Assembly: GCF_003991155.1 (NCBI RefSeq)
Contig: NZ_CP031293.1
From: Escherichia coli
GTDB lineage: Bacteria; Pseudomonadota; Gammaproteobacteria; Enterobacterales; Enterobacteriaceae
Strand: one strand, 5' to 3'
Length of the DNA: 64,000 nucleotides
This document shows positions 60,001-63,000 of the stretch, one piece after another (position 1 is the stretch's first letter; every line of letters begins with the position of its first letter). Made by a program: the position numbers.

Positions 60001-63000
60001 GCATTGCTTGAAAAAGATATTGCCAGTGATAAGGAGGTTATTGCTGCCTGTAGTAATGGTAATGCGAGTAGTTCAGCGTGTGCCAGCGCAAGACTGAAAG
60101 TTATTGCGTCGAAAGAAGGGTACGAAGATGGCCCTTATAACTCGAAATACAGCCAGCAATACGCTGATGCGTATGGTCAGATAGTCAATCTCCTCGATAT
60201 CACCAGTGTTGATGCACAGAATCAGCAGCAGGTGAAAAACGCCATGATTAACTATTTCATGGTCACCAAAGGGGTGGATCGTCAGACCGCAGAAAGCTAC
60301 ACCGAAACAACGCAGGGCTTGGAGATCATTGCGGCTTCGGTAACGCCTCTTATAGGGCAAGCTGCATCAAATAAATTAAGCTACCTTGGTATTGGGAAAA
60401 AGATATCCTTTGATGGTGATTTTTATACTGTAGATGGAATGAAATTCAGCAAAAGTTATTATGAGAAATTATGGGAGCAAGGCAGACCTGCGCCATTCGT
60501 GCAAGCAAGAGAAGTGTTGAATAGCAATCCAAAAATTGAGCCGGATCCTAGAGGCGCACCTGGCTACTTAAGATATGAAGGTGCAGGTCTTGAAATGATC
60601 TATAACCCGAAAACGGGACAAGTTGGTCATATTCAACCAGTCAAGGTTAAATAAAAAGAGGAAGTAAATGGATATTTGGCCTGAATTTCAACGAGATCTT
60701 GAGATGTATCGAGATGTTGTTTTATCAATAAAACGTAACCTTCGGTTGTATGAGGAGTGTATTGAATCGTTAGTTCATCAGATCGGAAGCACCAATTTTG
60801 ATAATGCGCAGCCTCTATTTGATGACCTCTTTCGTATGCAATCTGAACTTGCTACTATGTTATACAAATATGAATATAAGCCAGGAAAAAGGATACAAGA
60901 TTTAATATATCATCTGGACAGGGATGATTTTTACTCAAGAAAATATTGGCATAAAAAATTCAGTGATGGATTGGCATGGCCTGAATAATAGAAGTAGAAA
61001 TCCCGCCCTCAGTTAGCGCTGAGGAATCCCTAGTAATGGGCGGGTAAAAAAGACAGGCATAGAGTTTTGTGATCTACTGATTTGTGCAACCAATTCAATG
61101 AGATCGCTTCTATGCCTGCTCGACAAGTATGTCAGAATTTTTTCCACGATGCGTTAGCACCGTTTCACAAATACCGACAAAATGCTTTGCTGGATGCCAC
61201 CATCGCTCTCATCAATGGCGCATCACTGACGTTGACCAGCATCGGGCGTTATTTACCCGGCTTGGCTCGGGTCAAAAATAAAATCAAACGCGTTGACCGA
61301 CTGCTCGGTAATGAATCTCTTCACCGCGATATCCCACTGATTTTCAATAATATTATTGCCATGCTGACTAGCCAGCTATCTCTTTGTGTCATCGCCGTTG
61401 ACTGGAGTGGATATTCATCTCAGGAGCATCATGTGCTCCGCGCCAGCCTGCTCTGCGATGGATGCTCGCTTCCCCTGTTAAGCTGGGTAGTCCCGTCAGA
61501 AAAACAGCAGAACTCGCAGATACAAAAAAACTTCCCAGATGCCCTTGCCGAGGCTGTAAACCCTGTGGCCAGAGTCATAATAGTTACCGATGCGGGTGTT
61601 CTTACCCCCTTATTTCCAGACAGGGGCTGTATCTTAAGTTAACATTACCCGCTGACGTCGATATTCTCGCGGAGAGCGATAACCCAACGCACTATGCGGA
61701 TGGTTTTCATTGTAATGCTCGATCGCCACTGCAAGGTTTATATTGCCTGTTCATCGATCATCAATCTCGTGAACTGTGAGACGAAACAGCGTACACTGTT
61801 TGAACGTATCTACTTTTCCCAATACTGGGCGAAGGGAGATGTTATTGCGAAGCGCGCTCCAATTAGTCAGTGGGAACCTTATTCGGAAGAGTCACTGCTT
61901 GTCATCATCGTCACCAGCGTCTGTCGTATTAAAGTCGCGATGCTAAAACCTGAACCTCCCAGAGATCCCCATATCCCGCTAATGGGGGATTTTAACTAAA
62001 ACTTAGCGCTATCGCTGCATATTGTAACTATCCCGCATCACGTATGCATAAATTATGACGCCATACGGGGAACAAATACACAGAGGAAGAAAAAGATTAG
62101 ATTGGTTTTAAGGGATTTTTTATCATAAATGGCGCTGCTAAAATTATGAGATTATCGAAGATAAAATTCTTGATCATACATAAAAGGCCTCCTGAATTAA
62201 ATCAAGAGGCGTATAGTTTTTATATTACTGATGTATGTTTAATGATCTCACTGATTTTCACTTTCCTGTCCTGCGATCTTGAAAGAGTGGCAGCATCAGC
62301 AGTAGCAATCGCCGACATGGCCGCCTCACCATTGAGAAGGTCAATATAATCTTCTTCAGGTTTTGCACCACTGAGGATATTATGGAGGAATAACGTCTCC
62401 TTTCTTATTAAACTGGCAAGCCATAATGGTGTTTTTTTTCCAGGATGACCATATGCTATAGCGCCATCCATTTCTGAGGTCATATTGCCTTTCCGACGAT
62501 CATCATCTTCTTCTTGTGTTTCATGGACCAAAAAATGCTTTGTCTGACCGCCAATCCTAAGTGACCCTGCTGTTTCTTGCATATCAATTTTAATAGAGCC
62601 TTTAGTTCCATTGATGATGACATAATGTTCTGGCCAGTTAAATGCACTCCCCCACTCTAAGGTTGCTAGTTTTCCTGACGGGAATTCCAAGGTCATAAAT
62701 AACATATCATCTTCATTGCCAAACCCTAGACCAGAATGAGCTAAATTTCCACCAATCATAGTAACCGTCTCTGGTATTTCTCCAAGTAAATGCTGAACAC
62801 AATCTAACTCATGTATATGATGATATAGATGTCCACCAGATTGTTCTTTCATCTTTTTCCAGGAAAGTCTCTCCTGTTTGTTTTCCCAGCCATTTCTCTT
62901 GGTATGACATGATAATATTTCGCCGATAACACCTTCTTTAATTAACTTCCGTGCATATTGAACTCCATTGAAAAAATTCATAATATGCCCAGCCATAAAG

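Follow-up and report, generated by a model that had tools for sequence, protein, structure and literature searches.

A probable three-part insertion-sequence scar at the distal edge of a cdiBAI module in a mosaic Escherichia coli island

IS10 preferentially inserts at the target NGCTNAGCN. Criteria for the IS10 subgroup of the IS4 family, among them an element size of 1200-1350 bp and 9-bp direct repeats, were given by De Palmenaer et al. (2008; PMC2266710). Orphan cdiA-CT/cdiI arrays, their association with IS elements and the view that such modules are exchanged were described by Poole et al. (2011; PMC3150448). We analyzed a 64,000-nt stretch of the E. coli contig NZ_CP031293.1 (hereafter the window), in which a cdiBAI operon is followed by IS remnants. 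From 60600 to 64000 the window is identical to E. coli Rb-3 (NZ_AP025675.1) and many other human isolates. It is part of a mosaic genomic island with the order gsp, kps capsule genes, a CP4-like module (Ag43, cbtA/yeeU), sugar-use modules, cdiBAI, IS scars and yjhD'-ythA-nanY-nanX; past the window end follow an IS66 scar, orphan cdi fragments, pgt and pap. The stretch after cdiI, as judged from its sequence, is a patchwork of three dead gene fragments and not one frameshifted transposase. We concluded, with a probability of roughly 0.9, that it is a three-part scar formed by stepwise insertions and deletions at the distal edge of the cdiBAI module. The feature as such is an ordinary IS scar already annotated in dozens of E. 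coli genomes; RefSeq (PGAP) already labels an "IS4 family transposase, incomplete, missing C-terminus" at this site, together with a pseudogene for an "integrase core domain-containing protein" missing its N-terminus. The features are as follows.

49003-50775, cdiB
50788-60654, cdiA
60668-60988, plus strand, cdiI, assigned to the E. coli NC101 type, intact (phmmer vs. PDB 5I4Q chain B)
60989-61018, no strand, spacer of 30 nt from the cdiI stop to the IS end
61019-61051, plus strand, left terminal inverted repeat of an IS10-subgroup element, CTGAGGAATCCCTAGTAATGGGCGGGTAAAAAAG (pattern search, alignment with the ends of relatives)
61019-61597, plus strand, IS10-subgroup (IS4-family) remnant, the 5' 579 bp of a 1312-bp element (identity to full-length copies)
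61112-61597, plus strand, transposase codons 1-162 of 397-399 (gap-free alignment, alignment with IS10)
61597-61738, minus strand, terminal 142 bp of an ISEc48-like element of the IS3 family, IS2 group (blastn, rve_3, IS2 TnpB, RefSeq pseudogene)
61739-61750, no strand, 12 nt (TATATTGCCTGT) matching neither adjoining block (blastn boundaries)
61751-61999, plus strand, 3' part of yjhD (97.9% identity to K-12)
62053-62177, minus strand, ythA, frameshifted according to RefSeq (Rb-3 annotation, K-12 gene order)
62220-63338, minus strand, nanY (yjhC), 2,7-anhydro-N-acetylneuraminate hydratase, intact (Pfam GFO_IDH_MocA domains, annotation)
63350-64000, minus strand, nanX (yjhB), MFS transporter, cut by the window end (annotation)

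A phmmer search aligned the whole CdiI protein with PDB 5I4Q chain B (E 9.6e-72), and the CdiA C-terminus preceding cdiI matched chain A of the same entry. On these matches the toxin/immunity pair is assigned to the NC101 type; a UPEC 536-type toxin module had been considered and was ruled out by the PDB search. The cdiI stop codon lies at 60986-60988. The spacer that follows contains CCCGCCC at 61002-61008, and its last three nucleotides are GCG (61016-61018), the trinucleotide preferred beside the left end of the IS10-subgroup element.

A pattern search placed the start of the terminal repeat (CTGAGGAATCCC...) at 61019, the 31st base past the cdiI stop, where the IS end reads CTGAGGAATCCCTA. 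This bears out the sequence-only reading, which had noticed a repeat resembling the IS10 outside end about 30 nt after the gene. The repeat was compared by alignment with the two ends of each of three elements, namely an intact relative, IS10/ISVsa5 and an IS10A-family element. Eleven of its first 13 bases match the IS10 end nearest to the transposase start, as read from an ISVsa5 copy (CTGAGGAATCCCT vs. CTGATGAATCCCC); for the family consensus the match to this IS10 end is 12 of 13. Relative to the family consensus, the window repeat has one C-to-T change, at 61031. The window repeat and IS10/ISVsa5 both continue with TAATG and GGTAAAAA. The window thus carries the 5'-CT terminal bases and the terminal inverted repeat of the subgroup, with the left end alone present. 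The right end of intact relatives matches the left end (CTGAGGGATCCCC) and is closely like the right end of the IS10A-family element.

By blastn, homology to full-length copies runs from 61016 to 61597 and then stops abruptly, with the element break at 61596/61597; what is left is the front 44% of the IS10-like element. The remnant is 97.25% identical to a full-length plasmid copy on pRHB22-C23_2 (L005), 97.2% identical to a collapsed high-coverage contig of 1315 bp from Escherichia sp. MOD1-EC7003 that contains the 1312-bp IS (L050), and 84% identical at the DNA level to an intact E. coli chromosomal copy downstream of narI (L002). The ORF starting at ATG 61112 showed 35% identity to the IS10/ISVsa5 transposase over 169 aa (BLASTP, E 5e-26), and tblastn with the transposase matched 3,409 plasmid records, among them IS10A, ISVsa5 and ISEc29 family elements (E 1e-18 to 1e-19 for IS10A/ISVsa5). 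The NCBIfam profile NF033591 "IS4 family transposase" was matched at E 2.2e-34 and 119 bits, below its cutoff of 152 for no other cause than that the window protein is cut short.

An IS4-family transposase, truncated and frameshifted, had been proposed to follow the repeat, and a lack of similarity to such transposases had been named as what would speak against it. The BLASTP, tblastn and profile matches uphold the family assignment, and the truncation was also found, codons 1-162 of 397-399 being kept. The frameshift was not: codons 1-162 align with an intact 399-aa relative (L002:3099-4298) with 0 gaps at 83% identity (E 1e-102), and the other ORFs belong to the ISEc48-like end and yjhD. The first two catalytic Asp equivalents are retained, the second at codon 160 (61589-61591), and the break falls about 1-2 codons past it. 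The window copy has lost the catalytic Glu, the YREK motif (Y-(2)-R-(3)-E-(6)-K) and the right end, and its ORF (61112-61642, 176 aa) continues past the break up to a stop at 61640-61642 in foreign sequence. With neither its second end nor the Glu/YREK part of the catalytic core, the remnant cannot transpose. Branch substitutions numbered 3 synonymous and 6 nonsynonymous for the window, compared with 55 and 20 on the intact-copy branch; the numbers are small, and the pattern fits a remnant drifting under relaxed constraint.

Several intact relatives were available for comparison. One of them, found at a site flanked by rtT and narI in about 300 E. coli genomes, is 1312 bp long and has both ends and a 399-aa transposase (WP_001111618.1); the MOD1-EC7003 copy encodes an intact 397-aa transposase. 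The intact transposases contain YSRRMQIEQN(S/F)RDEK, score 336.6 bits against NF033591 (cutoff 152) and match PF01609, and RefSeq names the copies "IS4 family transposase" only, with no specific IS name. The left repeat of the window copy is the same as theirs but for one base, and the transposase start is the same. Unlike the window copy, the three intact copies (L050, L005 and L002) have both ends and target duplications, and those in L050 and L002 have an intact DDE and YREK transposase. Copies with both ends are bordered by perfect 10-nt repeats (CGCCGTAGCG, CGCCCCGGCG) if the ends are taken as CTGAGG...CCTCAG, and by 9-bp repeats if one flank base is counted in the element.

Compared with IS10R/ISVsa5 (Tn10), the element has the same 5'-CTGA...ATCCCC repeats (11-12 of the first 13 bases), a single DDE transposase starting about 90 nt inside the end, a collinear N-terminal 169 aa with two shared Asp positions, and a full length of 1312 bp that is within the subgroup range (PMC2266710). 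The 579 bp in the window are a fragment of such a member and not a complete element. It differs from IS10 in that protein identity is only 35%, no RNA-OUT match to Rfam was obtained in the window, the intact relatives make apparent 10-bp and not 9-bp duplications, and these relatives favour CCC-CGC-N4-GCG-GGG terminator hairpins; moreover, only a dead stump, 44% of the element, is left in the window. The Rfam scan covered 60600-62300 at a permissive E-value, and its sole hit was a chance match to rne5 (E 0.53).

Beyond the break, 61597-61738 aligns at 98.6% identity with the end of an ISEc48-family copy that is intact (L006:2501-2642), and the TG terminus of this piece (61597-61598) falls precisely at the point where the IS10-like element is broken. 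This 142-bp piece carries the last ~34 integrase-core codons on the minus strand, matched by the profiles rve_3 (E 3.5e-07) and IS2 TnpB (E 1.2e-12). The TG end with the adjacent integrase-core C-terminus places it in the IS3 family as a fragment alone, and unlike the intact ISEc48-family element, of which it shares the tip and the terminal codons, it amounts to about 11% of the element. After the 12-nt filler, 61751-64000 corresponds at 97.9% identity to the reverse-oriented K-12 block yjhD-ythA-nanY-nanX; yjhD is a pseudogene in K-12, and the K-12 site is without the IS10-like element. Of the 94-aa ORF annotated as "surface-adhesin E family" (61715-61999), the first 12 codons derive from the ISEc48 remnant plus the filler, and the Pfam Adhesin_E match of this ORF spans only profile positions 53-109 of 109, i.e., the C-terminal half.

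These results bear directly on whether 60989-61999 could be a single degenerate IS10-like element with a frameshifted transposase and a decayed second repeat near 61960-61999. Several overlapping ORFs in different frames do fill 61082-61999, and a 13-nt string at 61961-61973 resembles the family right end in inverted orientation; the string was rejected as a second end, being a chance match (E 2.4) inside conserved K-12 yjhD. However, comparison of 61598-62100 with a full-length copy by blastn and tblastx gave best E-values of 1.3-2.4, at chance level, 61597-61999 is filled by the 98.6% ISEc48-family end and the 97.9% K-12 yjhD block, and the retained part of the transposase has no frameshift. 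We regard a single element as having next to no chance of being correct. The extent to 61999 given by the sequence-only reading must be shortened to 61597, as ~40% of the interval is IS3-family end and yjhD remnant. That reading had also called for a search for the second inverted repeat and target-site duplication; neither these nor further IS pieces were found in the 64-kb window or 7 kb downstream.

For the three-part scar, we infer the following order of events. A 1312-bp IS10-subgroup IS, active and multi-copy elsewhere, would first have inserted 30 nt downstream of cdiI, its target probably being the GC-rich hairpin of the cdiBAI operon terminator, a type of site favoured by this IS family. 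An ISEc48-like IS3-family element would then have inserted into the IS10-like element just past the second catalytic Asp; this step is suggested because an IS terminus exactly at a breakpoint is the signature of insertion. Deletions would finally have taken away the 3' half of the IS10-like element, all but one end of the ISEc48-like element and any sequence farther on, joining the stump to the K-12-type yjhD'-ythA-nanY-nanX block. Among the genomes searched there was no intermediate state, neither an IS-free cdiI flank nor a full-length copy at the site. B-JRPT-4119 was rejected as an empty site, since its sequence departs from the window 6 nt short of the IS end and enters an IS256 scar. The junction was found at at least 99% identity in about 67 of 5,426 complete E. 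coli genomes (66-67), and the scar was present in all 10 listed contigs with an identical CdiI; from this distribution the junction is taken to be old and fixed. In SMBL the stump stops at the same base (61596) and is followed by an internal IS66 fragment and not by the ISEc48 end, so that a simple history would need an additional deletion anchored at the ISEc48 end.

We examined the surroundings for orphan cdiA-CT/cdiI modules (a cdiA 3' fragment, usually with VENN, plus a small immunity ORF). None is present in 60989-64000, in agreement with the sequence-only reading, which had noted no orphans downstream of cdiI; on the same chromosome, however, orphan cdiA-CT/immunity genes occur ~4.3 kb past cdiI, beyond yjhD'-ythA-nanY-nanX and the IS66 scar. 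There, an IS66 C-terminal remnant (PF13817, E 1.2e-18) precedes a VENN pre-toxin fragment of 332 aa; next are small ORFs and a DUF596 protein, and another VENN fragment lies beyond them. The IS66 remnant, the 332-aa fragment and the DUF596 gene all have the cdi orientation. The downstream orphan is 51% identical to this CdiA in the pre-VENN region (residues 2700-3030). Because identity is only 51%, the orphan may be a relic of a different cdi locus and not a displaced piece of this one. The present locus resembles the orphan arrays of Poole et al. (PMC3150448) in that IS scars flank the cdi module here and that the module closes the arrays of M19 and SMBL as their last orphan; it differs in that the nearest orphans are outside the window and distant from this cdiA.

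It had further been suggested that the insertion removed or displaced the orphan modules, and comparison with related strains had been proposed as a check. In M19 and SMBL, an orphan array ends with the same NC101-type CT/cdiI module, and the same IS10-like stump comes directly after this module. As the scar follows the module there, it would predate those arrangements and sit at the array end. Taken with the module exchange described by Poole et al., this suggests a scar lying at the distal limit of the array and not one that cost it modules. In one specific form of displacement, a yjhD'-ythA-nanY-nanX block, flanked by the IS10-like and ISEc48-like scars to its left and the IS66 scar to its right, would have come to lie between cdiI and pre-existing orphans, which would thereby have been shifted ~4.3 kb downstream and not lost. 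The order of cdiI, scars, nanYX block, IS66 remnant, VENN fragment and DUF596 protein would fit such a move, but the low identity of the downstream orphan to the pre-VENN region of this CdiA does not, nor do the M19/SMBL orphan arrays, which lie upstream of the CT/cdiI module with the same scar after it. The flanking scars also come from different IS families, so they make no composite transposon. On balance displacement is unlikely, and a boundary scar is preferred. Taken as a whole, the sequence-only reading is partly supported as an interpretation and partly confirmed as an observation.

Could the remnant have been kept for a function? The 176-aa fragment, which in such a case would be the DNA-binding part of the transposase only, might inhibit related IS elements in trans, or the IS end might terminate or start transcription of cdiI or of adjacent genes. 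The ORF at 61112-61642 is open with its native start, the junction is near-identical in about 67 genomes, and the flanking CCCGCCC can pair with GGGCGGG inside the repeat. Recent common descent of the island accounts for the cross-genome identity, however, and the private changes are mostly nonsynonymous (6 vs. 3) and fall at positions conserved in relatives. The stability of the hairpin is ordinary (z -1.5 and -1.4), with no downstream U-tract on the cdiI strand; a promoter/terminator scan of the junction gave nothing above shuffle expectation, and there was no Rfam match, including to RNA-OUT. A retained function is highly improbable, and we continue to read the remnant as a decaying part of the three-part scar.

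A separate observation concerns target sites: intact copies of this IS family insert into GC-rich intrinsic-terminator hairpins. The family is intact and present in about 27 copies in Escherichia sp. MOD1-EC7003 and is multi-copy in Tenebrionibacter. The exact left-end 31-mer was found at 39 places in the species-representative genome set, among them contig ends of MOD1-EC7003 (about 21) and of Tenebrionibacter intestinalis (11). Alignment of 42 independent left flanks gave C at -12 in 38 and at -11 in 37, an A-run in about half, and close to the end G at -3 in all 42, C at -2 in 35 and G at -1 in 33. Three empty sites in E. coli are intrinsic terminators, those of narGHJI, rplM-rpsI (AAAAAACCCGCTTCGGCGGGTTTTTTT) and yeiQ, and in copies with both ends the perfect 10-nt duplications span the top of the hairpin. 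CCCGCC, which occurs in several left flanks, was considered as an extension of the IS end and rejected, because the K-12 empty site shows it to be target DNA. When sites were scored with a target matrix, 73% of the known sites were above the 99.9th percentile of background. The window site (GAAATCCCGCCCTCAGTTAGCG) keeps the CC and GCG anchors, with a score of -1.26 that is in the top 2.6% of background and the lowest of the known sites; the right half of the presumed hairpin is lost, and the candidate duplicated target bases are TCAGTTAGCG. The cdiBAI terminator is at most a plausible insertion target.

Terminator homing is known for group IIC introns, and we know of no description of it for IS4-family elements. 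A literature search turned up neither a name for this IS nor an account of an IS4-family element that targets terminators. It is conceivable, though we would put it forward only tentatively, that the family homes to terminator hairpins (~CCC-CGC-N4-GCG-GGG, with a 10-bp duplication) and would therefore systematically land past the ends of operons such as cdiBAI, in which case the position of the scar would not be accidental.

The scar itself is of little import, being a dead IS fragment in a mosaic island rich in similar scars. The analysis has corrective value for the annotation of this region: the "surface-adhesin E family protein" ORF is a chimeric start fused to the yjhD remnant, the apparent absence of orphan modules is partly due to where the window ends, and the toxin module can be assigned to the NC101 type. 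The scar may also be used as a lineage marker for the distal end of the cdi array across strains. If terminator-hairpin targeting is true of this IS family, landing past operons would spare genes and seed portable homology at the module boundaries of islands and toxin arrays; if undescribed, it would be a modest addition to IS biology.

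Intact copies of the IS10-subgroup element that left its 5' 579 bp beside cdiI were found in GC-rich intrinsic-terminator hairpins. The loci compared were the genome contig matches L016-L054, the chromosomal copy near narI (L002), the E. coli T16R copy (L003), the full-length plasmid copy (L005), L065 and L066, together with nucleotides 60997-61018 of the window. Insertion into terminator hairpins is confirmed by three empty sites, the narGHJI, rplM-rpsI and yeiQ terminators. The approximate target consensus reads as an A-run, CCCGC, four unspecified nucleotides and GCG, followed by the IS, and the target duplication appears to be 10 bp. 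Two pairings are possible across the cdiI-IS junction (61002-61045 of the window): GGGCGGG of the left IS repeat with CCCGCCC of the cdiI flank, and CTCAG with CTGAG. The predicted fold of this junction was not more stable than shuffled sequences (z of about -1.5), and it has no U-tract on the cdiI strand.

The element is present at ∼27 copies in Escherichia sp. MOD1-EC7003 (a 1315-bp contig at a coverage of 3095 vs. ∼115) and at several copies in Tenebrionibacter intestinalis. Its most frequent relic in E. coli is an internally deleted copy of the T16R type, detected in ∼940 complete E. coli genome records at 95-99% identity; ∼200 bp are missing internally and the 10-nt direct repeat is perfect.

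Internally deleted IS10-subgroup copy
L003:3006-4118, E. coli T16R: in a KplE1-like prophage remnant, adjoining torI/dsdC

In strain SMBL (L013:6243-6503, equivalent to window 61540-61800), the IS10-like stump stops at the same nucleotide as in the window, 61596. To the right of the SMBL stump lies an internal fragment of an IS66-family transposase, whereas the window has the ISEc48 end; one breakpoint has two unlike right-hand partners. Further right in the window, the RefSeq CDS WP_001520155.1 ("surface-adhesin E family protein", 61715-61999) is a chimera: the ISEc48 remnant together with the 12-nt filler supplies codons 1-12, and all later codons belong to the 3' half of yjhD, an annotated pseudogene in K-12.

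The upstream part of the window (1-48800) is an island mosaic typical of extraintestinal E. coli.

Modules of the upstream island
1-48800: gspK-M; group 2 capsule kps genes; IS110 scar
Within 1-48800: CP4-like block with cbtA/yeeU, antirestriction, Ag43 and yfjI
Within 1-48800: sugar modules, ribokinase/fucP and PTS

Outside the window, 4-7 kb past its cdiI on the same chromosome, a degenerate orphan array was observed (L001:10998-13651 and L014:2320-5835). Behind an IS66 C-terminal scar lies a truncated orphan cdiA fragment, which ends just short of VENN and shares 51% identity with the CdiA of the window; beyond this fragment are a possible toxin ORF, a DUF596 protein and another VENN fragment. 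In strains M19 (L012:1-5689) and SMBL (L013:1-5629), the NC101-type CdiA-CT/CdiI pair is the last orphan of a multi-module array, preceded in M19 by cytidine-deaminase-like and DNA/RNA endonuclease toxins. The NC101-type CdiA-CT of the window, in contrast to these terminal orphans, is joined to a full-length cdiA.
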